DNA of 64,000 nt from an uncultured virus (IMG/VR IMGVR_UViG_3300034418_005550) (taxonomy: Duplodnaviria > Heunggongvirae > Uroviricota > Caudoviricetes). How positions within the stretch are numbered: the stretch's first letter is position 1; the number at the start of each line of letters is the position of its first letter. The stretch lies in IMG/VR virus record IMGVR_UViG_3300034418_005550. The stretch is one strand, 5' to 3'. This document shows, piece by piece, positions 1-29,485 of the stretch. The notes under the pieces were generated by a model. It saw nothing but the letters and a program-made list of their open reading frames with translations. It was not told the origin of the DNA and searched no databases. The position numbers and the translations under genes are program-made.

Positions 1-161
1 CTAGCATTTTCAGTATGTATTAATTCTAATTGTCCAAAAGTAGTCCATTTATTATCTGCTATAAGGTTGTTAATATCATTTGGATCAAACACACCTGTAT
101 TATTACCAAAACTTTGTGTTGGTTCTGCACCTTTATATCCATATTTCAAATCATCTGCCAT
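1..161 (-). CDS. Tail-associated paralog family protein, N-terminal part (partial)
   Basis: Starts MADDLKYGYKGAEPTQSFGNN, nearly identical to N-terminus of 33039-33689. Confidence 0.85.
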   Translation of the reverse strand, partial: MADDLKYGYKGAEPTQSFGNNTGVFDPNDINNLIADNKWTTFGQLELIHTENA

Positions 162-163
162 TG

Positions 164-676
164 TTATACCACCTTATATAAAGTAAATGTTCCACTTGCT
201 ATGTTTCCTGTTTGAAAACTTAAATTTACACCATCACAACTGCTAGTGCTTGTAAAAACTCCACCACCTTGATTTCCCTGTAAATTTCCTGCATTAGTTC
301 TTGTACTTTCTTCAACTGTAACAAAACTATATTCACTTGCATTATTGAAATTATATAAATACATTAATCCATTAGTGCTTTCATTAGCACCTGTTCCTGT
401 ATAAGAAAATATAAACCAATAAGATTGATTTGTGGAACTACCATTAGAAAATGTTGTATTTCCTTTCATTTGTTTATAAGCATAATCATAATTACTTGTG
501 CTATTTGGTGTTCCACTTTCAGTAACTCTAACTTGCACTAATTGTGTATCATTACTTGGAACTACATTATTCATAGCAACCATATAAACATCATCACTAT
601 CTATGCCTGTTAAGGTAACACTAGCAACTGCACTTGTTACTGTTTCTGTTGCTACTTGAATTAATTGTCCTGCCAT
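164..676 (-). CDS. Putative tail fibre/receptor-binding cassette protein
   Basis: 170 aa, beta-rich S/T/G/N, C-terminal GTFTLYKVV; homolog of 33692-34201; downstream of tail genes. Confidence 0.6.
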   Translation of the reverse strand: MAGQLIQVATETVTSAVASVTLTGIDSDDVYMVAMNNVVPSNDTQLVQVRVTESGTPNSTSNYDYAYKQMKGNTTFSNGSSTNQSYWFIFSYTGTGANESTNGLMYLYNFNNASEYSFVTVEESTRTNAGNLQGNQGGGVFTSTSSCDGVNLSFQTGNIASGTFTLYKVV

Positions 677-1197
677 TAGCTATCTACTCTCAATCCATAA
701 GTTCTTATAACACCACTAGCTATTGAATTAGCAGTTGCAAGTACATTGAAACCTGTCATTGAAGCAGTTTGTTTTAATACTGCAATACTTTTGTGTCCAT
801 AATATCCACCTGTTTGTGCTGAAGCCTGTGATAACAAAAAACTATAAGATGATGATGAATATGGATTGAAAATGTATGTTGTAACACTACTGCTCTCTGG
901 TGTTAAATCAAGATATGAAATAAGCTCTGTTCTTGTTGTATTAGTTTCTCTATTTTCACTAAAACTTGCACCACTATCTAACTGTAAAGTAGCACTATCA
1001 TAATTACTTGCTGACACAACACTTCCACTTGCATTTATAAATCTATATCTAAGTTGTGCAACTGATGATGAATTTAAACTTGCATTATTAATTGTTACTT
1101 GATATATATCAAAATCTGCTGAAAATACATCTGTTATATCAACACTTGCAACATCAGAAGTTATTTCAGTTTCATTAATTAATCTTAGGTTACTCAT
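676..1197 (-). CDS. Putative tail fibre/receptor-binding cassette protein
   Basis: 173 aa paralog; homolog of 34201-34725. Confidence 0.6.
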   Translation of the reverse strand: MSNLRLINETEITSDVASVDITDVFSADFDIYQVTINNASLNSSSVAQLRYRFINASGSVVSASNYDSATLQLDSGASFSENRETNTTRTELISYLDLTPESSSVTTYIFNPYSSSSYSFLLSQASAQTGGYYGHKSIAVLKQTASMTGFNVLATANSIASGVIRTYGLRVDS

Positions 1198-1808
1198 ATC
1201 TGTTTTACTCCATAAAGTTTTATAAAACCTTGATTTAAAAAATTGTAAGTTCCATTATAAAATTTTAAAGCATTAATTGTTTCAGCAGTTTTATATACTC
1301 CACCACCAAATCTAAAAGCATTTGCAAAATAAGCGTGTAAATTAAAAAAAGTATATTTGCTAGAATTTCCTGCATTATACATATACATATAACCAGAATA
1401 TGGAGTATTTTGAACATTTTGCATTATTCTATCTAAACTGTCATAATTTAATCTTGTTACTTCAGAAAAACTGCCTGTAGTTCCACAACTTTGGTAAGCA
1501 GTATCATAAACACTTCCACTTTCATAAGTAGAGCCATTGTCATTTGATACCCTTACTCTTACTGTATCTCCAGCAGTAGTCCACTCAATATTAGACCATT
1601 GAAATAAATGAACATCATATTTACTTTCTTGTAAGTTTGTAAATTCTATAGTAGTTGTACTTCCATTAGGAATTTGTGTATCAATAAGTTCTAAGCTACC
1701 ACCAAGTTTTCCTTGTGATTGAAGTTCAGCTACATCAGTAATAGAAAAGACACCACTATTAGATACAGTTTGATTAGGTTGATTTTGTCCTAGATAACCA
1801 TAAGGCAT
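1194..1808 (-). CDS. Putative tail fibre/receptor-binding cassette protein
   Basis: 204 aa; first ~43 aa identical to 34722-35330. Confidence 0.6.
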   Translation of the reverse strand: MPYGYLGQNQPNQTVSNSGVFSITDVAELQSQGKLGGSLELIDTQIPNGSTTTIEFTNLQESKYDVHLFQWSNIEWTTAGDTVRVRVSNDNGSTYESGSVYDTAYQSCGTTGSFSEVTRLNYDSLDRIMQNVQNTPYSGYMYMYNAGNSSKYTFFNLHAYFANAFRFGGGVYKTAETINALKFYNGTYNFLNQGFIKLYGVKQI

Positions 1809-1818
1809 TTGAACTCCT

Positions 1819-2148
1819 TTAGGTTATTTCTAAAATACTTGCAAACGCCTGTAAATCGCCAGACGCATTACCGCCTGTCAAATCAATCTTATCGCCATTT
1901 TCTAAAAATAATTTAGAAGTTCCTGCTAACTCAATTGTGCTATCTGCTGGAACTGAAATAGTATAAGCAATTTTTGCACTACCAGAAGTTCCGTCAATAA
2001 CATCAGCAGTAATTGTATCATCGGTAGCACCATCAACATTTGTTATTCTAAGTGTTACAACTATTCCAGATCCTCCACTTGAATTTGTATATAATGTTTG
2101 AGCAGATGATGTGACATCTAAATATGCATTTTTGTAAGCCTCAGCCAT
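1819..2148 (-). CDS. Virion tail-associated protein
   Basis: 109 aa, nearly identical to 35341-35670. Confidence 0.6.
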   Translation of the reverse strand: MAEAYKNAYLDVTSSAQTLYTNSSGGSGIVVTLRITNVDGATDDTITADVIDGTSGSAKIAYTISVPADSTIELAGTSKLFLENGDKIDLTGGNASGDLQAFASILEIT

Positions 2149-2158
2149 TTTTTCCTCT

Positions 2159-2608
2159 CTATCCTAAAGCCAATATTAGTCCAACAGTTGCCCCTGCGGG
2201 TGCTAAATTTGCAATATCTTGAGCTGTTGTTTTCTTAATATTATTAGAATCTGATATGTCCCCTATAATAACTTCATCGCCACCCGCTACAGTTACAGAA
2301 GTTTGAGAATTGACATCAACTGCTAAAGATACCGCACCAGAAGTTCCTCCACCAGATAAGCCTGCACCTGCTGTAATTCCTGTAATATCGCCCTCGCCAA
2401 TAAAATTTGCCCAAGAAGATCCATTGTAAAATTGTAAATCGTTTGAATCTTTTAGATAACAAAACATGCCTTCTTCAGCAGAAGTGACAGCTGCGTCTCT
2501 GGCGGTAGAGTCGTCAAAAACCATGACTACTTGCTCTTGTATGTAATTATTGAAGTCTGAGGCATTAACCAGATCGCCTGTGCTCCAAACTTTAAAACCT
2601 GCTCCCAT
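2159..2608 (-). CDS. Minor tail/fibre adaptor protein
   Basis: GDITGITAGAGLSGGG fibre-like motif; follows distal tail gene; homolog 35681-36133. Confidence 0.6.
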   Translation of the reverse strand: MGAGFKVWSTGDLVNASDFNNYIQEQVVMVFDDSTARDAAVTSAEEGMFCYLKDSNDLQFYNGSSWANFIGEGDITGITAGAGLSGGGTSGAVSLAVDVNSQTSVTVAGGDEVIIGDISDSNNIKKTTAQDIANLAPAGATVGLILALG

Positions 2609-2630
2609 ATTATTAATTGCTCCTTTTTGT

Positions 2631-3899
2631 CTAAGTATAAACCAATCTTGTGCCTTCGCCCAACTTTGCTTGTCCTAATACCCAACCTGCTGAACCTGCA
2701 GGGCTAAGTGTTAAATTCCAATTCCAAGTTTGTGTGCTTGCATTTACATTATGGCTTATTGATTCAATCCATAATTCATCAGTATAGTCAGAAGAATCTG
2801 GATTGACTACTTTGACCAATATTCTGTCACCGAAGTTTAAATCAAGAGCTTTAGGCCATATATTGACATCTTCTCGTGGATTAATTTTTAAGCTATCAAT
2901 TCTAACAATAGGCAAAGCAGTTTCGCTAATTTTTTGTTCAATAATACTTAAGACATCAGAATCATTTACATTGATAGTCGATTGAGTTGAGGCTATTGGT
3001 CTGTATCTAGTTATAGAATTTGCGTCAGAAACAAATTGAGATGAGCCACCAGATCTAGTCCATTCGTAAATATTAATAACCTCATTTAAGTCAAAAGATG
3101 AAACAACATCTTGATAAGGCAAATATGTTCCGTCATTACTAAAAGACGCTTGAACATTTACAGCTTTAGTGTTTGATAATCTATAATCACGATTTCTAAA
3201 TATTGCCGTTCCGTCTGGATTCATAAAAAATTGGGCATTCTCAGCTTTTTCTACTTCTCTTAATAATGTAAGAACATCAGAAGTTTTTGTTGATTGAGTT
3301 TGAACATTTACAGTTCCAGTATTTATATTACGAAGAGATGAGGGGAATTGTATTTGGTCTAATAATCTTGTAATTCTTGCACTAGATAATTCTTCTTCAT
3401 CTTCATATCCCATTACAGTTGATATACCTATTTCAGAAAAACCACCCCTGCCTAATCTCCACCCAGATGAATTTAAAGTGATTGAGTTAAATATTTTAAA
3501 AGCATCGACACAATTAAAACGAACAACTGAATCTGCACCAATTGCAGGATAAGATACAGGGATAGTATCAAGAAAACCATAAAACAAATCATATGTAGTT
3601 GAATCATAAGTTGCTTTTATTCTTACTACCTTATGAGGTTGAATTTTAGTAATACCATTTACATTGTCATAATAAGGTGAAGAAGTATTGTTAGGATTAA
3701 ATCGATTGTCTGCATTTGATAATAATATTTGTGCAGTTCCTCCAACGAATTGTCCTAATTCATTTGCTCTTCCCCTTTTTGTAGTAAATTGTCTTACATA
3801 AGTTGATACATCTGTAAAAGTTATTGAGCTGTCGAATGGATCAGAATCAAAACCAATTTCAACAGTTAAATCAACATTGGAATCAAAAGCAACACTCAT
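2631..3899 (-). CDS. Minor tail protein (distal tail/baseplate hub-like)
   Basis: 422 aa directly after tape measure; homolog 36144-37412. Confidence 0.7.
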   Translation of the reverse strand: MSVAFDSNVDLTVEIGFDSDPFDSSITFTDVSTYVRQFTTKRGRANELGQFVGGTAQILLSNADNRFNPNNTSSPYYDNVNGITKIQPHKVVRIKATYDSTTYDLFYGFLDTIPVSYPAIGADSVVRFNCVDAFKIFNSITLNSSGWRLGRGGFSEIGISTVMGYEDEEELSSARITRLLDQIQFPSSLRNINTGTVNVQTQSTKTSDVLTLLREVEKAENAQFFMNPDGTAIFRNRDYRLSNTKAVNVQASFSNDGTYLPYQDVVSSFDLNEVINIYEWTRSGGSSQFVSDANSITRYRPIASTQSTINVNDSDVLSIIEQKISETALPIVRIDSLKINPREDVNIWPKALDLNFGDRILVKVVNPDSSDYTDELWIESISHNVNASTQTWNWNLTLSPAGSAGWVLGQAKLGEGTRLVYT

Positions 3900-6385
3900 T
3901 AAAAAGCCACATTAATTCCACGCCTTGCACCTTCTTGAAGTGCTTTAGCTACTGCCTCTTCAATATCAGTTCCACTTGCTAAGGCTGCACCTACATTAAC
4001 TGTAACCAAATTTGTATTATTATATCTTGCTAATCCACCGCCAATGTCTGTAAAAGTACCTCTTGTTGGAACTTCTGCACCACCACTTGGTGGAAATTTT
4101 AATCCGCCACCAGATCCGCCACCAGATCCGCCACCACTTGAAGGAATACTTGGGGCTGATACGCCTACACGACTTTGCTTAGCAAACATTTCATCATACA
4201 TTTTGTTTATCTTTCCAATTTCGATTCCAGTTATTTGAGCCATTTTTTTAATAGCGTCTTCATAGCCTTTTGTTCCCTCACCGAAACTGGCTAGAGCTTT
4301 TGTTAATTGTTCTTGTGCTATTGCTTGTTCAAGTGTATTTCTAAAACTTTGTTCTGATACTTTGTTCAATTCTTTTTGAGCCTCAGTGACTCTATCTATA
4401 GCCTCAGTTCTTAAGTCTTCAGCTCTTGTTAAATCTTTTTCAGCTTGTTCTACAGCTCTTAATGCGTCTTTTTCTTCTCTGGATAACGCTGTAGATTCTT
4501 CTATCAATTTTGCTAACTCTTGTTGAGCTAGTTGTAGCTCTAGTTTTTGGATCGTGGAGAGTTCTTCTTGTTCTTGTAAAGCTCTTATTGTTTCTTTTTG
4601 TCGCTCTATTGCTAACTGTTCTTCTAATGTAACTTTTGCCCCTATACCTTGAACACTTGCTAGATGTTGTTTTGCTTTATCTAAATTCTCTGTAGCTTTT
4701 TCTACTTGTTCTTCAGCTTTAATTTGTTTTTCTAGTGCTTTATTTCTTTTATTTTCTGCGTTATTGACTCTGTCTTGAATAGATTGCATTTTATCAAGTG
4801 CATTCATTACTGACTGCAATCCGCCTAGTAATCCGTCTTCATATGCTTGTGCAGTTTCAAGTGCTTCTTTTGCGTTTTCATCTAAGGCGATTGCGTTTTG
4901 GTCAAGTAAAGAAGTTAATTGTGAAACTGTGTAATTTGTTCCATCTAAAATTTCGTCAAGTGATAAAGTTGAATCCACCAGATCTTCTGTTTTTTTACCT
5001 ACAAAACCTGTATAATATTCTTGCAATTTATAAGCATTAGTAAGTCGTTCTGCTTTTTCTGCAGCCTCTTCATATTTATCATTACTTTTTCCAATAGCCT
5101 TAAATAATTTACTTAAGCCTGTAACCACTAATGAAATACCTGGAAATAAAGCAAAAGACAATATTTTTGCAACTGTTTTTAATTTTACGCCCATTATTTC
5201 AATTGGTGCATTTGCACTATTTAATCTATTTCTAAAATTTTGTATTCTTTCAACAGATGTAGTTAAATTTGAAACCAAATTTTTAAGAAAAGGCATTAAT
5301 TCTTCGCCTAATGTTATTGCTAAATTTTGTAAATTATTTCTAAGTAGTTGTGTCTGTGCTTTAAAACTTTCAAGTTGTTTTTCTGCAATAGCTTGTGTAG
5401 TTCCGCCTGCTCTTCTTAATTCATGTTCATAATTACGGATCTGGTCTGTCGAACCACTTAAAATCTTTACTGCGTCTGCTACACCACGATTAAGTCCTAA
5501 TTGATCCAAAGTCGCAGCTTTCATTTCATCTGACATTGGCCCCAAAACTCTATCAAGTTCTTCAACTATATCAGCAACATTCTTCATCTTGCCTTCTGAA
5601 TCGAACATTTGAAGTCCTAGCGCAGCAAATGCCTCACTATTTTTTGCGGTAGCTCTTGGAATATCTCGAAGAACTTGGTTAAGTTTTTCACCACCCTCAG
5701 CACCTTTAACACCCCTATCAGCGAATGCTGCAAGAACGGCTACACCCTCTTCTACATCTTTATTAACAACCTTTAAAGCTGCACCTGCTTTAGTAGTTAA
5801 AGCCTCAGCAAATTGTTGAACACTTGCGTTTGCTAAAGTGTTAGCTTTTACAAGAACATCTGTAACTCTTGTTAATCCCATGAGGTTTTCTCTTGCGTCT
5901 TTTGAAGTTAAACCTAAAGCTGATTGAGCGTCAGTTGCTAAGTCGGTAGCTGTAGCCATGTCGAACATACCTGCTTGGGCAAAGGCAGCAACTTGGGGCA
6001 AAGCTGCAATAGATTGTTCTGCGTCTAAACCTGCAGACGCTAAGAAGAAGAACGCCTCAGCTGATTGGTCAGCAGAAATTGTAGTTTCAGTTGCTACTTG
6101 TCTTGCCGCCATAGCCATTTGCTCTTGCTGAAGAGTAGTAGTTTTCATGATTGCAAGAGATTGCGTCATCTTGTCTTCAAATTCAGTAAATGCTTGAACA
6201 GATTCTATAACGCCTTTTGCTAAAGCAAGAACTGCACCTGCTGCGACAGCTGCACCAACTTTTGCAAAATTTGCTAGTTTAGTTCCTGCAAGTTTTCCGC
6301 TTTTACCTAATGTCTCAAGCTGACCTCTAGCTACATTTGCCCCTTTTGTAGCTATCCTAATTATTAAGTCTGCACCTGCTCCCAT
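3899..6385 (-). CDS. Tail tape measure protein (TP901-family core)
   Basis: 828 aa, Ala-rich, FEDKM...SAEAFFFLASAGLDA motifs, coiled coil. Confidence 0.93.
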   Translation of the reverse strand: MGAGADLIIRIATKGANVARGQLETLGKSGKLAGTKLANFAKVGAAVAAGAVLALAKGVIESVQAFTEFEDKMTQSLAIMKTTTLQQEQMAMAARQVATETTISADQSAEAFFFLASAGLDAEQSIAALPQVAAFAQAGMFDMATATDLATDAQSALGLTSKDARENLMGLTRVTDVLVKANTLANASVQQFAEALTTKAGAALKVVNKDVEEGVAVLAAFADRGVKGAEGGEKLNQVLRDIPRATAKNSEAFAALGLQMFDSEGKMKNVADIVEELDRVLGPMSDEMKAATLDQLGLNRGVADAVKILSGSTDQIRNYEHELRRAGGTTQAIAEKQLESFKAQTQLLRNNLQNLAITLGEELMPFLKNLVSNLTTSVERIQNFRNRLNSANAPIEIMGVKLKTVAKILSFALFPGISLVVTGLSKLFKAIGKSNDKYEEAAEKAERLTNAYKLQEYYTGFVGKKTEDLVDSTLSLDEILDGTNYTVSQLTSLLDQNAIALDENAKEALETAQAYEDGLLGGLQSVMNALDKMQSIQDRVNNAENKRNKALEKQIKAEEQVEKATENLDKAKQHLASVQGIGAKVTLEEQLAIERQKETIRALQEQEELSTIQKLELQLAQQELAKLIEESTALSREEKDALRAVEQAEKDLTRAEDLRTEAIDRVTEAQKELNKVSEQSFRNTLEQAIAQEQLTKALASFGEGTKGYEDAIKKMAQITGIEIGKINKMYDEMFAKQSRVGVSAPSIPSSGGGSGGGSGGGLKFPPSGGAEVPTRGTFTDIGGGLARYNNTNLVTVNVGAALASGTDIEEAVAKALQEGARRGINVAF

Positions 6386-6577
6386 TTATCTTGTCCTTTT
6401 TTTGCTTTCAGCGTCTGCTATTGCTATTGCTTTATTTCGTTCTTCTTGTTCCCAAAGGTAAAAAGTTGCCCATTGGTTGAACTCTTTTAATGACATAGTA
6501 GCTTGTAATTCACCTACTGTCATGCATAAGTCCCTAGCTAGTCTAAAGCGGAAGGCAAGATCTGGATTATTCTTGAA
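6386..6577 (-). CDS. Tail assembly chaperone C-terminal frame (gpGT-like, probable frameshift product)
   Basis: Missing from ORF track; FKNNPDLAFRFRLARDLCMTVGELQATMS...W matches 39758-39946. Confidence 0.8.
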   Translation of the reverse strand, partial: FKNNPDLAFRFRLARDLCMTVGELQATMSLKEFNQWATFYLWEQEERNKAIAIADAESKKRTR

Positions 6578-6908
6578 ACTCGTCAGACATTAAAGTCTGG
6601 TCATCATCTCCAATCCCATTTAAGTTTGATATTTCAATAAATAGCCTGTCGATGATTTGAGCGTCCAGATCGTATAATTTTTCGATTGCCTCATCATCTA
6701 GCTTTGGATCTATAACGCTCACTTGCAATAGAGCTTTTTGATAATCAAAAGCGTCTTTTGATTCATCTTGAGTTATACGAGCCAAATCGATTTGCATTTT
6801 TTTTGTTAAACCACGAATGACAACTTTTGCGTTCCATTCTTTTATAACAACTTCTTTTGTTTCAACATTAGGAAGTTTTCCTAAGTTGTCTATATTTAAA
6901 ATGTCCAT
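6567..6908 (-). CDS. Tail assembly chaperone (gpG-like)
   Basis: Between tail tube gene and TMP; homolog 39936-40277. Confidence 0.8.
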   Translation of the reverse strand: MDILNIDNLGKLPNVETKEVVIKEWNAKVVIRGLTKKMQIDLARITQDESKDAFDYQKALLQVSVIDPKLDDEAIEKLYDLDAQIIDRLFIEISNLNGIGDDDQTLMSDEFQE

Positions 6909-6927
6909 ATGCGTCCTTTATGAATTA

Positions 6928-7338
6928 TTAGTGTGTGCCTCTTGTGACAGCACCGCTTACTTGAAAATCTGCGGAATATGCAACTACATCGCCTACAGGT
7001 GAACTTTGAGCGTAGCTTGTCAAAATACATTCGCCTGTATATTTGATATTGCCGCCTGTTGTTCCCTCTGGTGAGTATTCAAAAGATAGAGTTGCGGATT
7101 GTCCAACGACAGCTCCCAAAATTCCATCTATTGTGCTGTCCCAAAGTCCTGCTATTGCTATTGTTGCGTCCTTAAGTCCAACAATATAAGTTTTATTGCC
7201 GTCCCCAAGTACAGTTGTTTCAGCAACATCTGCAGTTTCTGGGAAATCCACAGAATTAATGTATGACGATATGTCAGTAAGTGTTCCACCAGAATCGTCT
7301 AGTTTAAAAACACTGTCCTTACCATGTGTAAATGCCAT
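6928..7338 (-). CDS. Major tail (tube) protein
   Basis: 136 aa, ETTVLGD..KTYIVGLKDAT motif, position before chaperone. Confidence 0.8.
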   Translation of the reverse strand: MAFTHGKDSVFKLDDSGGTLTDISSYINSVDFPETADVAETTVLGDGNKTYIVGLKDATIAIAGLWDSTIDGILGAVVGQSATLSFEYSPEGTTGGNIKYTGECILTSYAQSSPVGDVVAYSADFQVSGAVTRGTH

Positions 7339-7358
7339 ATATTGCTCCTATTCTTCTA

Positions 7359-8069
7359 TTACTTGTTTCTTCCAAAGCCTACAATAGCAGAAAAACTTGG
7401 TGTTGTTCCGCCAATAGTAGCCTCAACTTTTAGATATCTGTTTACAGTAGTTCCCTCAGCTACATATTTTATTTCACTTGTAGTCGAAGTGGCTTGTGTA
7501 AATGTTACCAAATCTACATAAGTGACATCATCAGCTGAATGAGTTATTTTAATATCAGCTGTAGGGGAAGTTCCAGACGCAGCAGATACTATTAAAAAAC
7601 CTGCTCCACCGTCAGCGGTTGAAGAGCTGTTATCTCTAGCAGTTCCACTTGTTGTTGAAGTATAAGTTGCACTCTCTAAGATATCGCCATCATATAAACC
7701 ATTATCACTTTGAATATCAATAGAAGTAGCAACTACATCGCCAACTGGAGAGCTAACACCATAATTTGTAATGTTTCCATTTTGAAATCTAACTTTATCG
7801 GTAGCGTCAGTTCCCTCAACGCCAATTAATAAAAGACAATCAGCACCGCCTAAAAGTGGTTGTATAGTTGCGTCAGCTGTTGCGTCAAAAAATCCTGTAA
7901 GTGAAACAGTTCCGTCTTTGTTACCAACTATGTATGTTTTATTTGAGTTTCCAAATGTAGTTGTTTCTGCAATGTCAGCGGATCTGGTCGAATCAGCTGA
8001 ATTAAAATAACTTGAAAAATCTGTTTCGTTTAAATATATTTTTGTATCTTTACCATGCACAAAGGCCAT
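7359..8069 (-). CDS. Tail tube paralog with C-terminal extension
   Basis: N-terminal ~125 aa paralogous to 6928-7338 (MAFxHGKD...SSPVGDVV) plus ~110 aa beta-rich domain. Confidence 0.7.
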   Translation of the reverse strand: MAFVHGKDTKIYLNETDFSSYFNSADSTRSADIAETTTFGNSNKTYIVGNKDGTVSLTGFFDATADATIQPLLGGADCLLLIGVEGTDATDKVRFQNGNITNYGVSSPVGDVVATSIDIQSDNGLYDGDILESATYTSTTSGTARDNSSSTADGGAGFLIVSAASGTSPTADIKITHSADDVTYVDLVTFTQATSTTSEIKYVAEGTTVNRYLKVEATIGGTTPSFSAIVGFGRNK

Positions 8070-8143
8070 TATCTTTTACCACCATTCCTGCGTCTGCCTC
8101 TTCTTCTATTATTACTACCACCAGTTGATCCATACTTAGGCAT
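8069..8143 (-). CDS. 24-aa Arg/Gly-rich micropeptide MPKYGSTGGSNNRRRGRRRNGGKR
   Basis: TAATG-coupled at both ends; positional homolog at 41445-41516. Confidence 0.7.
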   Translation of the reverse strand: MPKYGSTGGSNNRRRGRRRNGGKR

Positions 8144-8358
8144 TATTCTTCCTCAAATTCTGTATCAGTGTCTTCTACTTTTACATTAACACTCTCTTGC
8201 AATTTTTTCTCTTTATAGGCTTTTGTAATTTCTACAATTATCTTTTGTTTCACTAACCATTCCAATGACTCTTTAGGAATGTCACTTTTATTAATAGTGT
8301 CACCTGCAATAAATTCTTTTTTCTTAATTTTTATTCCTGTTAAAACTTCATAAGCCAT
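8143..8358 (-). CDS. Small conserved morphogenesis-region protein
   Basis: DIPKES..WL motif shared with 41516-41683. Confidence 0.75.
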   Translation of the reverse strand: MAYEVLTGIKIKKKEFIAGDTINKSDIPKESLEWLVKQKIIVEITKAYKEKKLQESVNVKVEDTDTEFEEE

Positions 8359-21184: not shown

Positions 21185-21201
21185 ATGCTCAAATTATACA
21201 T

Positions 21202-21239: not shown

Positions 21240-21245
21240 AATTAA

Positions 21246-21707: not shown

Positions 21708-21843
21708 TTTTAGATTCCCCTTTCAATATTTTCTCGAATCATAAACTCATTATATAATATATAAATTATATATACAAGCAAAAAAACCTTTTTTTTATTG
21801 ATTTTTTATTAGGCTAGATAGTGAGTTGTCTGATTACAAAGCT

Positions 21844-21866
21844 CTTAAATCGGCTCAAAATGGCCT
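21844..21866 (+). repeat. 23-bp inverted repeat, copy 1
   Basis: CTTAAATCGGCTCAAAATGGCCT; exact reverse complement at 29463-29485. Confidence 0.85.
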
Positions 21867-21868
21867 GT

Positions 21869-22357
21869 TTATTCGTCTAAATCTTCATTCCATGTGGTTA
21901 TAAGAGCTGTAACTATATTTACTATCTCATCAAGTTCTGCAATCACTAAACCATTTGAAGTGCCGTCTGGCATTGCAACAAACATAAATGGTCGGCTGTC
22001 CCCTATTCTTTTATTGCTATCTGATTGTTCTTTTGCTTGATTGTATTTTGTCCAGATCGTCTTAACTTGCGCACCTGCTTTAACTTCTACACGAATATTT
22101 CCGCCCCAGTTTTCTTCATGTCCCATTCTGGATCTAAACTTAGCGTCTGGAATCATTAATTTTTTTCTTGCAAGGTTTTGTTTTCTTCTGCCTTTGTTTT
22201 TATTTTTTAAACCACGCTTTTGGTTTTCTGTCCAGTTGTCTTTTTTCTTTACAGTTTTTTGTCCCATACCTTGCAAACCGCGTTCATCGTGCTTGCGTCT
22301 TTTCCAATCTGAATAAGTTTCATCTTCTCTTATATCAAATTCTTTTTTTGTAGCCAT
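21869..22357 (-). CDS. Conserved phage protein, possible PD-(D/E)XK resolvase-like nuclease
   Basis: RVEVKAG motif; close homolog 51043-51516. Confidence 0.5.
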   Translation of the reverse strand: MATKKEFDIREDETYSDWKRRKHDERGLQGMGQKTVKKKDNWTENQKRGLKNKNKGRRKQNLARKKLMIPDAKFRSRMGHEENWGGNIRVEVKAGAQVKTIWTKYNQAKEQSDSNKRIGDSRPFMFVAMPDGTSNGLVIAELDEIVNIVTALITTWNEDLDE

Positions 22358-22512
22358 TTCCATACCATTCTGTTTAGTAGATGATTTTTAATCCAAGCCC
22401 CGCATACCATACATTCTAATGTAATCCAATTCATATGACCTACAACAAAAGTGTTATAACAATCCCAACAAATTATGTAGGTGTTTTCAAAATATATTTC
22501 TTGTTCTTCCAT
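22330..22512 (-). CDS. Small Zn-ribbon protein
   Basis: CWDC...CMVC. Confidence 0.5.
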   Translation of the reverse strand: MEEQEIYFENTYIICWDCYNTFVVGHMNWITLECMVCGAWIKNHLLNRMVWKWLQKKNLI

Positions 22513-22584
22513 AAATTCAGTTTAATGCAAGTAAGTGGCGGTTGGGCTGCAATCCGCCACTTATTGCGCTACTGCGTCAAGTAG

Positions 22585-23034
22585 CTACCCTGTTGGTTTT
22601 TGCTCTATTGGTTTAGGCTTGTCTGAATCTACTTGAGCTTGTAAAACTTTTTCTAACCAATATGGATTGTCGCCTGTCCATAGGTGTAAGCCTAGCCCTA
22701 GATTTCTTGCACATCTTTTAAAAGCGTCTGACTCTGCTTTTTTGAGTAAGTCGCCATTGTTATCTTTTGTATTGATTGTATTTGCACTTCCAGATCCTTG
22801 AACTGCATATGTTTGGTCATCAACAACTACTTGTAATTCCCCAATACAACCACTTACTTGTCCATTAGGTTCATAAATTATTTCCTTAATTGACCAATCA
22901 TAATTCCCGCAGACTTCCAAAAGTCTTTGAGCAATAGTTCCAAAGGGCACATAATCTTCTTCCCCATGTGCTTTTTTGATTTGCTTGATAAAGTCTTTTG
23001 GAAAAACTTTAGCAAGTGCTAATTTTTGTTTCAC
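22585..23034 (-). CDS. Rad52/Sak-like single-strand annealing protein
   Basis: LKKAESDAFKRCARNLGLGLHLW. Confidence 0.8.
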   Translation of the reverse strand: MKQKLALAKVFPKDFIKQIKKAHGEEDYVPFGTIAQRLLEVCGNYDWSIKEIIYEPNGQVSGCIGELQVVVDDQTYAVQGSGSANTINTKDNNGDLLKKAESDAFKRCARNLGLGLHLWTGDNPYWLEKVLQAQVDSDKPKPIEQKPTG

Positions 23035-23152
23035 TTTTTCCCCTTTTTCTTTTTCTTTAATTCATTAAAAGATTCTTTGACATCTTCTATTGAATTTATA
23101 TCAACTATATTTTTTTCTACAGTATTGCCGTCAATGTCCATAAATGTAATTT

Positions 23153-23356
23153 TCATATTCCAACCTTTCCTATAATTGCAACTTCACCTGCAGTGTGTTC
23201 TATCATTTTTGAATTTAAGACAATCATTTTCTTTTGTAAGCTATCCATTTTATGTAAAGCCTCCAATGCCTCAACCATTCTTTTATTTACTTCTTCCAAT
23301 TTCTCAACAGATTTTTCCAGATCGTTGATTTTTTGTAAGAGTTCTTCTTTATTCAT
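23153..23356 (-). CDS. Hypothetical coiled-coil protein
   Basis: Coupled ORF in early operon. Confidence 0.55.
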   Translation of the reverse strand: MNKEELLQKINDLEKSVEKLEEVNKRMVEALEALHKMDSLQKKMIVLNSKMIEHTAGEVAIIGKVGI

Positions 23357-23537
23357 TGTTCTCTCTTCCATTCAACCATTCGGCAATAGTATCTTTTGCC
23401 CACAATGGATTACCACTAACAACAGCGTCTTCTTCTGGAAGTTTCCCGTCACTTCTATATTGTCTGACAGTTTGTTCTTTTAATCCAGTTGCCATTGCTA
23501 TTTCTTGAATACCAAATATGTTTTCCCAATTAATCAT
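23349..23537 (-). CDS. Small HTH DNA-binding protein (AlpA/excisionase-like)
   Basis: GIQEIA..TG...TVRQY...GKLP...G.PLW; homolog 57600-57791. Confidence 0.75.
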   Translation of the reverse strand: MINWENIFGIQEIAMATGLKEQTVRQYRSDGKLPEEDAVVSGNPLWAKDTIAEWLNGRENNE

Positions 23538-23733
23538 TTTTAATCTCGAACATATTATCAGTTGTTATTTCTTCACCTTTATTCAATCGATCCATAAAAT
23601 CAACATTTGGTTTTTGTTCATATTCAAAACCAAACATTTTTGCTAGTTTTACTGCTACTTCACCGAGAAGAGCACCAATAGCAATTATTGAAATAAAAGC
23701 AAAAGCAATATAAATAACGCTTACATCATTCAT
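23530..23733 (-). CDS. Hypothetical membrane protein
   Basis: N-terminal hydrophobic helix. Confidence 0.55.
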   Translation of the reverse strand: MNDVSVIYIAFAFISIIAIGALLGEVAVKLAKMFGFEYEQKPNVDFMDRLNKGEEITTDNMFEIKND

Positions 23734-23923
23734 AGTTGTTCCCTTTCCAAATTACTTATACTTGTGCTTCAATATGTGAAACGCATAAATCACAATGAGG
23801 ATAACTTGCACTGCCTAATTCAATAGGCGGTTCATTATCTTGCATTAATTCTTTACACATGTCACATCTGTAAATAAATAATTCTTTCATAATATATACA
23901 TTATATAAGATACATGCGATATA

Positions 23924-24679
23924 TTAAGCATATATTTTTTGTTCTTCTTGACAGTAATAACAAACATGTAATTGATATTTAGCATGTTCATAACCGCTAT
24001 CACGGAATTTATGGCCATCTGTTTTACAGTCCCAGATCTTTTCAGTTTTTGCTTTTTCTTCTACTCTTCTTAATATTTGACCAAAGTTGCTTGCAATAGC
24101 AGTAGGTGTTATATCAATATCTTTCCAGTTAGTCTTATACCAATCTGATACAGCTCTAACTTCTTCTGTAGTTGCGTTCACTTCTCTTAATTGTTTAGTA
24201 GCTTTTTGTAATCTTCCTAGCTCATTCTTTGGAGCTCTGTTCCAATCTATCCCACAACAATTTGCAATCTCTTCAAATAATAAATCTCTTCTTCTTTTGG
24301 TTTTCTTAATATGGTTTTCTTTGAGCGACTCTGCAGGGGCTACCCTAGTGTCGTCTGTGTCGCTACCCCTAGCGACTGACATGTCCCTACCCTCAAAACG
24401 ATTAAGAAAATATTGATTTACTTTATTACTGCCGTCAGCTTTTTTCTCTCTAAATACTTTTATTGCTTTTATAGTTTCCAGATCCTTAATTGCTCTATCA
24501 ACAGACTTAACAGAACAGCCTGCTCTTTTTGCAATAGTGGATCGTGAGGGATAACACTTCCCCTCACTATCAGCAAAACCACAAAGAACTGAATATATTA
24601 CTTTGCTTTTATCAGATATTTCAGATTCTAAAACCCACCGAGCGACTATGTTAAATTTAACATCAGTTTCAAAATGCAT
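23924..24679 (-). CDS. Replication initiator with N-terminal HTH
   Basis: ISDKSKVIY..L, CYPSRSTIAK..GCS..SVDRAIK.L, NQY; internal repeats; homolog 56207-56959. Confidence 0.8.
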   Translation of the reverse strand: MHFETDVKFNIVARWVLESEISDKSKVIYSVLCGFADSEGKCYPSRSTIAKRAGCSVKSVDRAIKDLETIKAIKVFREKKADGSNKVNQYFLNRFEGRDMSVARGSDTDDTRVAPAESLKENHIKKTKRRRDLLFEEIANCCGIDWNRAPKNELGRLQKATKQLREVNATTEEVRAVSDWYKTNWKDIDITPTAIASNFGQILRRVEEKAKTEKIWDCKTDGHKFRDSGYEHAKYQLHVCYYCQEEQKIYA

Positions 24680-24847
24680 ACAACCCCTTTCATCATCTTT
24701 TAAAACATTCAGAACAAATTGAAAGCCCTAAAAACTCGCCTTTGGTTTTTTGATAGTGCCGTTCTGAACCACCATAAATCATACTTGCACAGCTGTAACA
24801 AGAATGAAACTCAACACAAATACAAGTTGTAAATTCTTCACCTTTAT

Positions 24848-25126
24848 TCATAAATTCAATTTTAGTTCTTCACCAGGTTTAGCAATTAATTGATAATACG
24901 CACCATCACCTTTTTGATTATCAACAACATCAATAATATAACCACGCTTACGCAATTTATGAACTGAACTTGATAACCTGCTTATGTAAAGTTCATATAC
25001 AATTTCTTTTGTTGATAGTGGTTTTTCTTTTTTGAATCTCTCTAAAGCCCAAATTAATTTATCTTCATGAGTCTTTAAAGAGCTAGGCAAAATGCATTCC
25101 CTAAAGCTGTAAGGTATAAACGCCAT
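24848..25126 (-). CDS. Winged-helix DNA-binding protein
   Basis: ISRLSSSVHKLRKRGYII. Confidence 0.6.
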   Translation of the reverse strand: MAFIPYSFRECILPSSLKTHEDKLIWALERFKKEKPLSTKEIVYELYISRLSSSVHKLRKRGYIIDVVDNQKGDGAYYQLIAKPGEELKLNL

Positions 25127-25175
25127 TATTCCTCCTCAGCTTGTCCTTGTAAAAAATAAAAATAATCTTCTTCCA

Positions 25176-25487
25176 TTATTCTTCCCCCAATTCACTTTTC
25201 CAACACTTGTTACATAACATAAAGTCATCAGACTCTAACGGAAAAAAACCAATTTTACTACAAAAAGCACACATAAACCAACGAGGTTCAGCGGTGTCAT
25301 TTCTTGTAAGTAAATTAGTAAAGTATTTTTGTAGTGATTCTTTATCTACTTTTACTTCAATTTTATTTCCATTAAGATCTGGTAATTGAATTATCAATTT
25401 GTTCTCCAATCTTTTTTTATAATTATAACAAAACAATAAAACTGAATGGGCTATAATGAAAACATCTTTATTCATTACATCGTGCAA
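25176..25487 (-). CDS. Hypothetical Zn-finger protein (start uncertain)
   Basis: CAFC...CNKC at C-terminus. Confidence 0.45.
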   Translation of the reverse strand: MHDVMNKDVFIIAHSVLLFCYNYKKRLENKLIIQLPDLNGNKIEVKVDKESLQKYFTNLLTRNDTAEPRWFMCAFCSKIGFFPLESDDFMLCNKCWKSELGEE

Positions 25488-25517
25488 ACGAGTGGTCAGA
25501 ATCTAATTAGTTGTTCT

Positions 25518-26162
25518 CTAATCTTCTGACCATTGTTCGGCCATAGCTTGAGCAACACCTTTAAAAAATACACTTCGCAATTTACTGCGTTCTTCACTAG
25601 GCGGCAAGTTCCATTTACTTGAACGGATATGTTTTGGAAGTTTCATTATTTCTTCTGTTCGGTCATTTGTTTTTTCTAATTTTGGTAAATTTTTTAACCA
25701 TAAAAAAGTTCTTTTTGATTCTAAGTCGCCAAACTCATAAGGTTGAATTATTTGGTCTGCCTCTTTTATATAAGTTGTAATTAATGAGTTAGGATTTTCA
25801 ACGCAAATTTTTGGAATAGGTGCGTCCATTAAGAGCTTTACAAAAGCTAAAGCCTCAAACATTTTTTTTCTACGATCTGGGTAATTTGGGTGTTCTCTTC
25901 TCAAATCTCTTTGTAAGTGCATATCTCTTGGATCATAAAGTGCCCAACTTCCGCTAATAGCAAGATAAGTGCAAGGTGGATGAGCTATCATCAAATCCCA
26001 ACCATCATATAAAATGTCTTTTACATCACCTACATAATGTGTAGCAAGTCCGCCAAAATCACTTTCAGTTTCAAGTAAATCACAACTTACAGCGTCATGA
26101 CCAAGTTTTAAAAATTCATCTCTAACGATTCCTGAATATTCACATGCAACTAAAACTCTCAT
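25518..26162 (-). CDS. Phage C5-cytosine DNA methyltransferase-like protein
   Basis: VLVACEYSG motif I variant, DLMIAHPPC motif IV, VENP motif VI, G.A.AMAEQW end. Confidence 0.75.
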   Translation of the reverse strand: MRVLVACEYSGIVRDEFLKLGHDAVSCDLLETESDFGGLATHYVGDVKDILYDGWDLMIAHPPCTYLAISGSWALYDPRDMHLQRDLRREHPNYPDRRKKMFEALAFVKLLMDAPIPKICVENPNSLITTYIKEADQIIQPYEFGDLESKRTFLWLKNLPKLEKTNDRTEEIMKLPKHIRSSKWNLPPSEERSKLRSVFFKGVAQAMAEQWSED

Positions 26163-26707
26163 TCTTCAGCTTTCCATAACTCATTCCAATTATTATTGTT
26201 CCAACATTCCTTACTAGGTGTCCATGGTTTCCAATAATTATTTCTTGAATGAATATCTTGAACTAAAATTTTACTAATTAAAAAATTGTAGTAAGGAACA
26301 AATTGCACTTTATTTAGTCTATAGAGATTTGGATAATTTGAAATCAATATTCTTCTTAAACTTAATGGAATGTTTTCAACTGGAATATTATTGTAAGTTA
26401 AAACATAAGAATTAAATTTAGGCAAGTCATATTCTGTTGCTACCCAATTCCAAGTGCTAGGTATAACTTGAAATAAACCACTATCATTATTTCCTTTGTT
26501 AAGTGCAAAAGTTTTTCCCCTAGATTCGCACCACGAAACTTTTACAGCTCTCTCTATATTATGAGTTTCAAAATGCTCAACATAATCTTTTGAATATTGA
26601 ATAACATTTGTTGGTAAATAATTATTACATTCTTTTACTTTTAAAATGTCATCTTCTTTTAATGGATCTTGAAGACTAGCAAAGAATAAAATACATTCAA
26701 CAATCAT
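26159..26707 (-). CDS. Lytic transglycosylase (SLT-like)
   Basis: WCES catalytic Glu, DSGLFQV..STW. Confidence 0.8.
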   Translation of the reverse strand: MIVECILFFASLQDPLKEDDILKVKECNNYLPTNVIQYSKDYVEHFETHNIERAVKVSWCESRGKTFALNKGNNDSGLFQVIPSTWNWVATEYDLPKFNSYVLTYNNIPVENIPLSLRRILISNYPNLYRLNKVQFVPYYNFLISKILVQDIHSRNNYWKPWTPSKECWNNNNWNELWKAEE

Positions 26708-26839
26708 ATAAGAAAAGGCTGACTAGGTTTGTTACACGACAGGGGAATCATATATGAAGAACTAATCAGCCTTAAACTTGTTTTAATCATAATGATTATT
26801 TTACATTATAAAAGTGATAAAACCATGTAGAATTGAATA

Positions 26840-27493
26840 ATGGTAAATGCCATAGATTTTAAAAATAGTTTTGTTGCCTTTTCTGGAGGCAAAGATAGTG
26901 TGGCTGTATCAAAATATGTAAGAGAAGAATTAGGTTTATCATTACCTCATGTCGCAGTAATAAATCATGAACTAGATTATGAAGAACATATTGATTATAT
27001 AAGAGATTATTGCGATGATAATAAAATAGAATTGCACTTCCAGATCCTTAAAAATCGTGGCCTAGATTATGTAATACATAATCCAAAATATATATTCCCT
27101 TTTGATTCAAAAGTAAAAGGTGATTGGTTTAGAAAATTTCAACAATATGGAATTAAAAAATTTGCAAAAGACAATAATTATTCAACAATAATTTATGGCC
27201 GAAGAATAGCAGACGGCAATAATATTAAATCAGAATATTATAAAACAGCTGATAATCTTTTTCATTATTTTCCTTTAAGGATCTGGAGCAACGAGCATAC
27301 AAATTATTACATATCAAAGGAAGAGCTGTCGCCTATATATGAAACAGAATTAGGTAAAAGGCGTGGAACACACACTATCAATATTGCTAATGAATATAAT
27401 GGAACAGATGAAATTGGGCTTGAATTAGTAAAATCAATTAGTCCAGATAAAGCAAAAATTGTTGAAGAGCTTTTAAAAATTAAATATAAATAA
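26840..27493 (+). CDS. PP-loop/PAPS-reductase family protein
   Basis: VAFSGGKDS, IYGRRIAD, PLRIWS. Confidence 0.8.
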   Translation: MVNAIDFKNSFVAFSGGKDSVAVSKYVREELGLSLPHVAVINHELDYEEHIDYIRDYCDDNKIELHFQILKNRGLDYVIHNPKYIFPFDSKVKGDWFRKFQQYGIKKFAKDNNYSTIIYGRRIADGNNIKSEYYKTADNLFHYFPLRIWSNEHTNYYISKEELSPIYETELGKRRGTHTINIANEYNGTDEIGLELVKSISPDKAKIVEELLKIKYK

Positions 27494-27544
27494 TTACACT
27501 TTTTTATATATATTCTATATAATGGATTGTATGAAAGGGGAATT

Positions 27545-27742
27545 ATGAAAGTAATTACAGCAGTAGAAATTGATTGCATTAATCCAAATTGTAATGATGA
27601 TTGTTGCTATGAAGACAAACAACATTTTAATTTAGTTTATGTAATTAATAATGAAGTAGAAGAATATAACTGTGACAATTGTGGAGCAGTTTTACCTATT
27701 GACAAAGAGTTAATAGAACAATTAAAAAGGGGGCATGAATAA
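27545..27742 (+). CDS. Small Cys-rich hypothetical protein
   Basis: GGGGG RBS, upstream TATAAT; CINPNC...CDNC. Confidence 0.6.
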   Translation: MKVITAVEIDCINPNCNDDCCYEDKQHFNLVYVINNEVEEYNCDNCGAVLPIDKELIEQLKRGHE

Positions 27743-28002
27743 TGTTAGCTATAAACTCAACTTTTAATGAAGTTGAAATGGATGTAAAAGCAGGAATAAA
27801 AGTTAATGCTGTAGCAGCATTAAATTATGTTCTTGAATTGGAAGGTGAAATATGTTCGTTAGACAGAACATTTACTTCTAATTTAAGGCATTGTGTTTAT
27901 ATATTAAAAGAGAGAACTGCTAAAGAAATTTACAAAGAAGAATGTAAATGTGGTGGCTCGAATAGAAAACATAGTAAATATGTTTATGATTGGGCTAGTT
28001 AG
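27742..28002 (+). CDS. Hypothetical protein
   Basis: TAATG-coupled ORF followed by terminator. Confidence 0.6.
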   Translation: MLAINSTFNEVEMDVKAGIKVNAVAALNYVLELEGEICSLDRTFTSNLRHCVYILKERTAKEIYKEECKCGGSNRKHSKYVYDWAS

Positions 28003-28014
28003 TTAAATAAAATT

Positions 28015-28050
28015 CAGCCTATCAATTAATTTTGGTAGGCTGTTTTTTTT
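28015..28050 (+). terminator. Intrinsic terminator
   Basis: CAGCCTATCAA...TTGGTAGGCTG + T8. Confidence 0.75.
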
Positions 28051-28183
28051 CATCCAAATTGATTTCTATTGGTTCAGTAAGGTGAAAAATTCCTTTTGGA
28101 AGTTCTCTTATCTCTACTGAATCATTATCTGTATGAATGACACTAACTTTGTAGCCTGTGTTATCAATAGCAATAACTTTCAT
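28022..28183 (-). CDS. Small hypothetical protein
   Basis: 53 aa MKVIAIDNTG...KGIFHL; positional homolog 63758-63895. Confidence 0.55.
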   Translation of the reverse strand: MKVIAIDNTGYKVSVIHTDNDSVEIRELPKGIFHLTEPIEINLDEKKQPTKIN

Positions 28184-28222
28184 ACTAAAAATTATACATA
28201 ATATATATAATTATGTCTATAT

Positions 28223-29410
28223 TTATAACAATTCTAAGTTTGCCCAACCTTTTTCATTTATTGTAAAAGTGAGAACTGCAGGGTGGCTCCAAAGTCCAGA
28301 TCTCTCTGTAAAGTCAAGTGATTTGTCTAAGCTAGGTGCTTGAAACCAAGCTCTATTGCCTTGATACTTACTTCTGAAATGATGATAATGACCTGTAATA
28401 AGAATCTCACATTCACCTGCAGGAAGATGTCCATACATTTGACCTTTCCACCAATTTTCTATTTTTGCCTCAGCGTTAGATCCACCGCCACTTGACATAT
28501 GGCCGTGTGTCCAACCTACTGTTCTATTTTTAATTGTCATAACTTGATGAAAGCCTTTTGGTATTTCAACTTTTACATTTTTATAACGATCTGGATTGGC
28601 GTTCATAATTTCTTCACATATTTGCAAGTGCATTGTGTCTGAATTATCTAATCTATTAGTAAGAACTTGTCCTTTACCACTTCTTGTCATCTCTCCATGA
28701 TTACCTGGTGCTCCCGCCAAAACAATTTTGTCTGCTAAAGGCAAAAAAGTATCTACTGTTTTCATAATCATTGACCTAGCTAATGCGTATTGCTCAATCA
28801 ATGTGAGAGAAACATTAAAAGGTTGGCTGTCGAAAAAATTTTGCGAACAGTTTTCTGTCAAGTCGCCTAATCCAACTATATAAATTTCATCAATTTGATT
28901 TCCCAACTTCCTTAAATCTTTTATTCTATTTACTGCGTCTTGTAGTGCTATATCATATCTATTAATTGTATTTGTAACACCGAAATCAACTTTGCCTAAT
29001 TGCCAATCAGCCATAAAAAACATAAAAGCTGTATCACCGCCATAAGTTTTTTCTTTTATTGGTAATTTTTTTTCTACTCTTTTTAAAAGTTCAGTGACAT
29101 ATTTATCCCTTAATGGATTTTTTCTGCGGACTATTCCTTTGAATGCATAAAATGTTTCAATTCTGCCGCCTTTGAGTTGAACATTCCAACTGGAAGTTTT
29201 AACTGCCCCCTCAATCGTGTAAAGTTTTGGATCATATCCCCAACTTTTTAATATCTCATCAAATTTATTTGCATAATTTGGGTCAGTTCCAACATGTGTA
29301 ATTTCCCCAGATCCTAATTCTTCATCAATTTCTATTTCTGGTTTCCAACCATGTTTATAAAAATTGTTGCCCCATTCTTGTTTAGGTGCGTGTTTATTTT
29401 TTTTGGTCAT
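28223..29410 (-). CDS. Calcineurin-like metallophosphoesterase (Mre11/SbcD-like)
   Basis: ADWQ, GLGD, PGNH, THGH, TGHYHH motifs. Confidence 0.85.
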   Translation of the reverse strand: MTKKNKHAPKQEWGNNFYKHGWKPEIEIDEELGSGEITHVGTDPNYANKFDEILKSWGYDPKLYTIEGAVKTSSWNVQLKGGRIETFYAFKGIVRRKNPLRDKYVTELLKRVEKKLPIKEKTYGGDTAFMFFMADWQLGKVDFGVTNTINRYDIALQDAVNRIKDLRKLGNQIDEIYIVGLGDLTENCSQNFFDSQPFNVSLTLIEQYALARSMIMKTVDTFLPLADKIVLAGAPGNHGEMTRSGKGQVLTNRLDNSDTMHLQICEEIMNANPDRYKNVKVEIPKGFHQVMTIKNRTVGWTHGHMSSGGGSNAEAKIENWWKGQMYGHLPAGECEILITGHYHHFRSKYQGNRAWFQAPSLDKSLDFTERSGLWSHPAVLTFTINEKGWANLELL

Positions 29411-29462
29411 TTATTGGCCAATCTTTCATTAGTCATAATATTAGTGCATATTTGATAAAAAA

Positions 29463-29485
29463 AGGCCATTTTGAGCCGATTTAAG
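29463..29485 (-). repeat. 23-bp inverted repeat, copy 2
   Basis: Reverse complement of 21844-21866. Confidence 0.85.

Follow-up and report, generated by a model that had tools for sequence, protein, structure and literature searches.

Restriction-site avoidance is known in phage genomes, and M.CviPII methylates the first C of CCD. Here we analyse the 64,000-nucleotide record of an uncultured caudovirus, IMGVR_UViG_3300034418_005550 (hereafter the window), whose first part belongs to a phage, A, that keeps GATC and GGCC exclusively in certain flanking contexts and in evenly spaced series, and that carries an orphan C5-cytosine methyltransferase as well as a module of IbrA, IbrB and a sodium:solute symporter (SSS), all candidate participants in DNA marking. 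Context-limited anti-restriction marks are known from Mom (PMC13219725), the GpC enzymes (PMC8256090), CmoX (PMC12783734) and M.BatI (PMC8936443). Phosphorothioate (PT) marks, whose motifs include GpsATC and CpsCA (PMC12914056), repress translocation-coupled nicking by DndFGH with only 10–15% of the sites marked (PMC11662687), and the nucleases DndFGH and DndI are held off by such sparse marks (PMC11662687, PMC12707154).

Like the enzyme of phage A, the orphan C5 enzymes of phages and chloroviruses (phage GpC enzymes, PMC8256090) have a C5 fold and no partner endonuclease, and those with short sites shield overlapping restriction sites, as the putative three-base site in A would. The phage A enzyme differs from them in its 214 amino acids (aa), its fold resembling the DNMT3 catalytic domain and its predicted site, CCA; no CCA motif is given in the available part of PMC11954522. 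Neither a TET enzyme nor a glycosyltransferase was found in phage A. As in phage A, a C5-fold enzyme is encoded on the same phage as AMP-forming enzymes and ParB genes in the carboxymethyl-cytosine system CmoA-CmoX-CmoY (PMC12783734). However, CmoX has SPPC (PMC12783734) where the A enzyme has HPPC, the PP-loop genes of A persist without the methyltransferase in lineage A3 (see below), and the Cx-SAM synthase CmoA had no match in a protein-family scan of 18 non-structural phage A proteins, from which small open reading frames (ORFs) and structural genes were left out; the host could supply this enzyme. Mom of phage Mu (6-NcmdA at SAS, PMC13219725) likewise makes a post-replicative, context-limited mark that was first mapped by restriction sensitivity. 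It is, however, a GNAT using Gly-tRNA, whereas the motif in A is CA/CCA, and no Mom-like GNAT was matched among the scanned phage A proteins, the sole GNAT residing in phage B, which occupies the rest of the window. The 7-deazaguanine (Dpd) genes are absent from phage A as well, FolE, QueC-F and DUF6610 being found in phage B only.

The systems SspABCD (CpsCA) and DndABCDE-DndFGH/DndI share with phage A a PP-loop/PAPS-reductase-family enzyme beside ParB-family genes and the words involved (CCA, GATC, GGCC), and a reader of sparse marks would reward evenly spaced sites. In contrast to them, the module of A is phage-borne, comes with a solute symporter and is not tracked by the CCA rule, and IbrA, which has the PAPS-reductase/FAD-synthase fold, matches the DndC, SspD and BrxP models at the PP-loop motif only (24–50 residues; 17 bits against a cut-off of 290 for TIGR03183). 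No DndD/SspC-type ATPase, SspB-type nickase or DndE was detected among the 18 proteins, and no cysteine desulfurase among the phage A proteins scanned; the last may come from the host (IscS, PMC10853773). With neither a DndC/SspD enzyme nor the partner proteins among its scanned products, phage A may be said, by analogy, to work like Dnd/Ssp rather than to be such a system.

Compared with plain site avoidance, by which most relatives fully lose GATC and GGCC alike, the shielded copies in A are enriched, conserved, replaced and evenly spaced. To the systems described, this case adds a natural deletion splitting the footprint in two, independent series within a genome and turnover with replacement. 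The literature searched, outside which stood subscription papers, REBASE and supplements, assigns no DNA product to IbrAB and no specificity to the family of this methyltransferase, nor does it describe shielded GATC at even distances in phages.

Context and spacing of GATC and GGCC in phage A

Phage A contains 66 GATC (83–29310) and 19 GGCC (2854–29464) in the window. CCAGATC/GATCTGG accounts for 39 of the GATC and TGGATC/GATCCA for 27, with no other context, and all 19 GGCC lie in TGGCC/GGCCA (together, rule A). An earlier sequence-only reading, which had put the numbers at about 65 and 19 with no exception, was thus confirmed; its wording that every site overlaps or abuts CCA/TGG applies to one side only, as GATC followed by CCA is never an allowed context (0 versus 1.2 expected, not significant). 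The comparison with codon-preserving shuffles that it had called for (200 shuffles over 33 ORFs, coding DNA only) gave 0 GATC outside the allowed contexts against 49.0±5.7, the lowest shuffle having 30. The GGCC rule taken alone is weaker in coding DNA (0 exceptions versus 5.7±2.3, some shuffles reaching 0); over the whole segment it attains p=6e-6 on background, and over the five lineages A1, A2, A4, A5 and A6 introduced below it applies to 48/48 sites. The context rule is real and no artefact.

In coding DNA the overall number of GATC is not depleted (60 versus 62.8 in codon shuffles), while the allowed contexts are enriched: CCAGATC is present 37 times against 3.4 (about 11-fold) and TGGATC 23 times against 10.6. 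CCAGATC is similarly enriched in A2 (26 versus 2.4) and A4 (12 versus 1.0), and is the most over-represented 7-mer in both A1 and A2. It is used in all six frames by means of rare codons, with common alternatives free (for example, at 7 of 22 chances against 0.2 expected). Codon forcing of GATC was rejected as an explanation, since the same kinds of protein are encoded without GATC in phage B as well as in 54 of 75 related loci. Avoidance is indeed the family default, 51 of these loci, many of them redundant, lacking both words, and phage B has neither word anywhere in 29701–64000, as had been noticed before. The earlier supposition that the host population restricts both words agrees with this default. 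A separate candidate, CATCC-A, was dropped, as Trp-Met codons may force it.

Each of the three site classes forms an even series (Table 1). Among 1e6 random sets none was as even as Series 1 and 17 were as even as Series 2, and the coefficient of variation (CV) of the gaps of seven control 4-mers was 0.94–1.23. In a screen of 2093 words in A1, five reached p<0.001 for evenness, four of which derive from these series; in the Markov control 1 of 2054 words did. CAGATC is the most even word in A2 (CV 0.36) and in A3 (CV 0.29). In 4 of 5 tests, merging the CCAGATC and TGGATC series gave a CV at or above that of shifted controls, so the two answer separate demands. No pairing between them was detected (p=0.29), GGCC was closer to CCAGATC than expected in one test (144 versus 272 bp, p=0.007), and no strand polarity needs to be invoked, both orientations being intermixed. 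CACCTAC is also evenly spaced in A1 (n=12, CV 0.27), which the small number or multiple testing may explain. GACGC/GACGCA is 3–4-fold over-represented alike in A1 (window 1–29700), A3, B and unmodified relatives.

Part of the sites are also conserved. CCAGATC is retained at 18 of 29 aligned places in A2, against a background of 0.38, and at 7 of 9 in A4, and TGGATC at 15 of 21 in A2. Of 23 new sites, 10 are no more than 200 bp away from a lost one, versus 3.7 expected (p=0.002), the threshold of 200 bp having been picked once the distances were known. The phage gains, keeps and spaces each shielded class every 0.7–1.5 kb, which goes beyond tolerance; pure shielding, as proposed before enrichment and even spacing had been noticed, does not predict either. 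Selection on phages can thus maintain restriction sites and distribute them evenly, the reverse of the usual avoidance logic, and the pattern suggests a host defence sensitive to how densely marks occur.

Loss of the methyltransferase in lineage A3 and the second footprint

Six lineages, A1 (the window) to A6, at about 80–84% nucleotide identity were compiled from IMG/VR and metagenome contigs with overlaps removed. The methyltransferase gene, which tblastn recovers where it is present, was found in A1, A2, A4 and A5 (79–86% to A1), its locus in A6 not being covered; a profile search of records G002–G005 gave none, with no positive record included in the search. Rule A is obeyed by 160/162 GATC (A1 66/66, A2 58/59, A4 19/20, A5 6/6, A6 11/11). 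In A3, meanwhile, the gene has been removed by a clean deletion between the same two neighbours, seen in two assemblies, with IbrA (95%), IbrB, the symporter, the second ParB gene (ParB2) and the small PP-loop gene retained. All 100 GATC of A3 are followed on one strand by A (77) or TG (23), a rule shifted by one base, and only 16 fit rule A. Sites of the TGGATC type alone number 0/100, against 48/162 in the other lineages, and GGCC is found as TGGGCCA/TGGCCCA in 10/10 cases with no plain GGCCA. The CAGATC series, however, persists without the methyltransferase and is at its evenest there. Of 57 aligned A1 cores, 27 recur at the matching position in A3, where their flanks obey the rule of A3. 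Two small, weakly supported trees, in neither of which A3 is the outgroup, place A3 within the clade.

The GATCCA/GGCCA part of the rule accordingly tracks the methyltransferase, over one independent loss. It had been asked earlier whether the signature follows the methyltransferase or the IbrAB-SSS module; that part goes with the former, whereas the CAGATC series survives its loss. An SspD-like CpsCA mark as the explanation of the CCA rule by itself is contradicted by A3, which has a 95% identical IbrA yet no CCA rule. ParB2 as a specificity switch was likewise weakened: it has 28 private changes in A3 versus 5–6 elsewhere, but its start is as diverged in A4 (78/95) as in A3 (79/95), and A4 still follows rule A. 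Lineage A2 has an additional Dam-like (PHROG 111) methyltransferase (L016:3104-3661); as its GATC obey rule A despite this gene, the site of the enzyme is probably not GATC.

When every word of 4 or 5 letters was compared with codon shuffles, another footprint emerged: in A1, A2 and A3 certain words are kept almost only with T before G or A after C. When these lineages are set against phage B and eight unmodified relatives, the proportions are 82/84 versus 191/317 for GTAAC, 149/162 versus 327/453 for GACC and 43/43 versus 45/62 for GAACC. GCGC, GAGGC and GTAC exhibit the same CA footprint, and some 20 other G...C words are free of it; the few sites sampled in A5 depart from it (GTAAC 1/4). 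Since the footprint is present in A3, where the C5 enzyme is missing, the shared PP-loop genes are its candidate writers. CCTC, too, is retained in A3 where CA stands a base farther away, which suggests that the second mark is bulky.

Candidate writers and competing explanations

The product of 25518–26162 is predicted to have a C5-methyltransferase fold nearest to DNMT3, in agreement with the earlier assignment of an orphan methyltransferase-like gene. The model (pLDDT 93.7) had C5 enzymes throughout its leading Foldseek and VIA matches, with Z of 12.7 for DNMT3A/3B, 11.1 for CmoX and 10.8 for M.HhaI (root-mean-square deviation 3.5–4.2 over 181–188 residues), and sequence searches of the PDB gave no match. 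P62 P63 C64 and E122 N123 P124, corresponding to the catalytic PC and EN(V/P), are invariant across 76 methyltransferase sequences, and K150/R151/T152 represent motif VIII. The C-terminal motif includes an invariant R196, which may correspond to M.HhaI N304, the position of an Arg in CmoX; DNMT3A likewise has Arg there. No cognate endonuclease adjoins the gene, as neither of its neighbours, one SLT-like and one encoding 103 aa, had a nuclease match, and its family is very common (at least 8000 homologs). Use of C in third codon positions before CA or TGG was not clearly lower. As to the other candidates, a PAPS_reduct + DUF3440 protein adjoins a ParB_N protein, as the definition of the IbrA/IbrB phage module has it, and the small PP-loop protein had no PADLOC match. 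Of 50,697 annotated phage records, only one was matched by the symporter.

The reading that we favour, tentatively and at somewhat less than even confidence, has three elements: 5-methylcytosine (5mC) at CCA, a further mark that the PP-loop module would place on CA/TG steps, and selection in favour of marked GATC at regular intervals. The host community would cut unmodified GATC and GGCC, most relatives having erased both. The orphan enzyme would methylate the first C of CCA, yielding GAT(mC)CA and GG(mC)CA; GAT(mC) and GG(mC)C are the positions that block Sau3AI- and HaeIII-type enzymes. A second, bulkier mark on CA/TG steps would shield the sites it touches, including CA-GATC, its putative writer being either IbrA, acting together with IbrB/ParB and a solute taken up from outside, or else the small PP-loop protein. 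Alongside the methyltransferase the usable form would be CCAGATC, where the extra C may mean that both marks are needed or that the C of CTGG is methylated too. Finally, a scanning host factor would stand down at marked GATC/GGCC and, because it would be disarmed by the marks, the phage would need a marked site within reach everywhere, that is, within about 1–2 kb. By analogy with the PT-sensing DndFGH/DndI, a scanner is the most likely cause of the spacing; other readers may be mismatch-repair-type signals or decoys for two-site enzymes.

It is rather doubtful, though conceivable, that the marks serve as a kind of passport, i.e. that the phage marks chosen GATC/GGCC subsets, each every 0.7–1.5 kb, against a scanning, self-sparing nuclease (DndFGH/DndI-like or other). 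If so, the IbrAB-symporter module would be an uncharacterised DNA-adduct pathway at CA steps, the 214-aa enzyme a CCA-specific C5-methyltransferase, and the gap length a readout of the range of the scanner. More generally, the case gives predictions for two hitherto unassigned phage gene families: a CCA site for the methyltransferase and a CA-step adduct for the IbrAB-symporter or its small PP-loop neighbour.

Several observations weigh against the combination of 5mC, CA-step mark and selected spacing. The six lineages share ancestry and the natural knockout is a single, independent loss; moreover, A3 has gained a beta-class DPPY methyltransferase (L008:83-829, just after a metallophosphoesterase-like gene), which could itself make the rule of A3. 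Rule A as a general trait of the methyltransferase or IbrA families had to be rejected, being found in 0/38 loci with methyltransferase homologs (41–62%) and 0/79 with IbrA. C/T polymorphism gave no sign of 5mC deamination (3/771 before CA versus 36/3597 in other contexts, with few polymorphisms). The base of GGNCC-A that the mark would hit is the protective position; despite this, a following A does not bring GGNCC back in the methyltransferase lineages (1 GGNCC in 74 kb). A mark on the A of CA should protect CATG, which A3 avoids (2 versus 41), and GATCA is shielded in A3 and not in A, so that CA-step marking would require a host difference. The distant IbrA and SSS phage L151 is without the CA footprint (GTAAC 22/32). 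TGGATC is retained at only 1/6 places in A4, retention of GGCC is not above background (10/23 versus 0.48), and the replacement threshold was, as mentioned, chosen afterwards. In addition, no prophage or host contig was found in the search for the host.

The simplest competitor, one enzyme with one mark, has the methyltransferase act on the C of CCA and CTGG (degenerate, two-strand) and the beta-class enzyme of A3 on CA and CTG. In both arms a C occupies GATC position 4, both arms change upon gene loss, and there is precedent for a degenerate one-and-two-strand C5 enzyme in M.BatI (PMC8936443) as well as for short-site phage C5 enzymes (PMC8256090). Yet a single mark should even out the union and not each arm, and the union in A1 has a CV of 0.83 versus 0.68 for shifted arms; CAGATC is followed by A in 1/120 cases, whereas TGGATC is in 11/27 in A1; and the CAGATC series outlives the gene in A3. 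With the arms behaving as independent even series, we consider this explanation unlikely, and the earlier proposal that a single mark on the C of CCA and CTGG explains all sites was not upheld. Quite unlikely, too, is a PT-like backbone or base adduct written by the PP-loop module alone, whose target would be CCA in A but CA in A3, with the loss of the methyltransferase a coincidence. The parallel between the two rules (CCA/CTGG versus CA/CTG), the presence of the module in every lineage with the locus covered, the occurrence of CCA, GATC and GGCC as PT motifs and the changes in ParB2 of A3 would suit it. Against these stand an IbrA that is 94–95% identical among A1, A2 and A3 with 9–11 private changes in each, the equally diverged ParB2 start of A4, the CA footprints of A1 and A2 outside CCA, and the missing ATPase, nickase and desulfurase among the 18 proteins.

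Marks written by the host, whether by its methylases or by a Dnd/Ssp-like system with flank preferences, would make the phage genes bystanders and leave the phage to supply substrate sites. Even spacing of the same word, TGGATC, recurs in a distantly related family member with 7-deazaguanine genes (L122, L239), so the demand is not tied to the enzymes of A, and 5 of 43 distant IbrA loci have other evenly spaced subsets (0/20 methyltransferase-homolog loci do). As even spacing recurs in lineages with other writers, the demand itself looks host-imposed. The allowed contexts, however, vary with phage gene content, and a host-written mark would vanish after growth in a host without the writer; such an origin of the marks is improbable. 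The absence of any mark, with the pattern a residue of avoiding many longer sites plus codon funnelling, is very improbable. These genomes do avoid many words, some allowed words are inflated several-fold, and Asp-Pro is funnelled into GATCCA in 13/14 cases; but rare codons are chosen despite free alternatives, even spacing and nearby replacement would not be expected, and rules in which either flank suffices are unlike simple recognition sites.

Structure of the window, phage B and the wider family

The window is a chimeric join of A and B within a 1-kb stretch common to both phages. Positions 34009–64000 are identical to record G001 (phage B), which 29701–33031 matches at 99%; the independent phage A contigs L014 and L015 track the window as far as 30720 and diverge beyond; and read depth in runs X3 and X5 is flat at ~22x until ~29.7 kb and erratic thereafter. 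Single contigs bridge 21612–28460. Phage A extends to at least 30720, beyond the stretch 82–29468 over which the sites had been described earlier, and its genuine lysis and tail genes run on differently beyond the join in L014 and L015. Its genes for IbrA, IbrB, the symporter and ParB2 all adjoin the terminase genes, and it further carries the orphan methyltransferase and the small PP-loop gene. The distant phage L151 has the same ParB-SSS-IbrA-IbrB order (7950–11732), beside its terminase genes.

Table 1. Site series and gene features of the window
Feature	Position	Strand	Remarks
Series 1: CCAGATC/GATCTGG, n=39	2069..29313	.	mean gap 717, longest gap 1316; CV 0.46; never followed by A
Series 2: TGGATC/GATCCA, n=27	83..29233	.	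mean gap 1121, longest gap 2337; CV 0.46
Series 3: TGGCC/GGCCA, n=19	2854..29467	.	mean gap 1478; CV 0.56, p=0.007
Minimal orphan C5-cytosine methyltransferase, 214 aa, HPPC and ENP motifs, PHROG 757	25518..26162	-	candidate 5mC writer, first C of CCA
IbrB-type ParB_N protein	17399..17968	-	ORF call reaches 18043
IbrA-type PP-loop adenylating enzyme, PAPS_reduct + DUF3440	17928..19139	-	candidate second-mark writer
Sodium:solute symporter (SSS)	19105..20529	-	possible importer of a small co-substrate
Second ParB_N protein (ParB2)	20519..21184	-	53% identical to the ParB part of the phage B ParB-DUF6610 fusion
Second, small PP-loop protein, 217 aa	26840..27493	+	alternative candidate second-mark writer; in A1–A4; A5, A6 locus not covered
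A/B-common stretch, switch point A to B	29701..30720	.	99% to G001 from 29701; L014/L015; depth
Phage B 7-deazaguanine set: ParB-DUF6610, FolE, QueE, QueD, QueC, QueF + GNAT	55035..63390	-	contrast to A

Although phage B has all the preQ genes, together with a ParB-DUF6610 fusion and a GNAT, it has erased GATC and GGCC. No word protected by its mark was found among all 4- and 5-letter words compared with codon shuffles, and its DUF6610 domain is possibly, at a guess, DpdA-like. In L122 (6438–7661) and L239, the DUF6610 domain of which is 66% identical, GATC is present as GGATC in 36/37 cases with a surplus of GGCC (31 versus 14), which suggests a third footprint and DUF6610 variants that differ in site. 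Among six further loci of the family, three had evenly spaced GATC/GGCC subsets, and these three belong to a single 7-deazaguanine lineage. Matches of the capsid protein (28–33%), many of them from actinobacterial phages, provide a weak lead to the host only.

An A3-like excess in L035, L041 and L050 was attributed mostly to composition. GATC is present at 1.8–3 times expectation in L134, L141 and L131 with no strict context rule, and CTAAG is evenly spaced in L141 (n=37, CV 0.52). Finally, L020 encodes two different short C5-methyltransferase-like genes (354–1022 and 1411–2052), and its GATC is found as GATCA in 15/16 cases.

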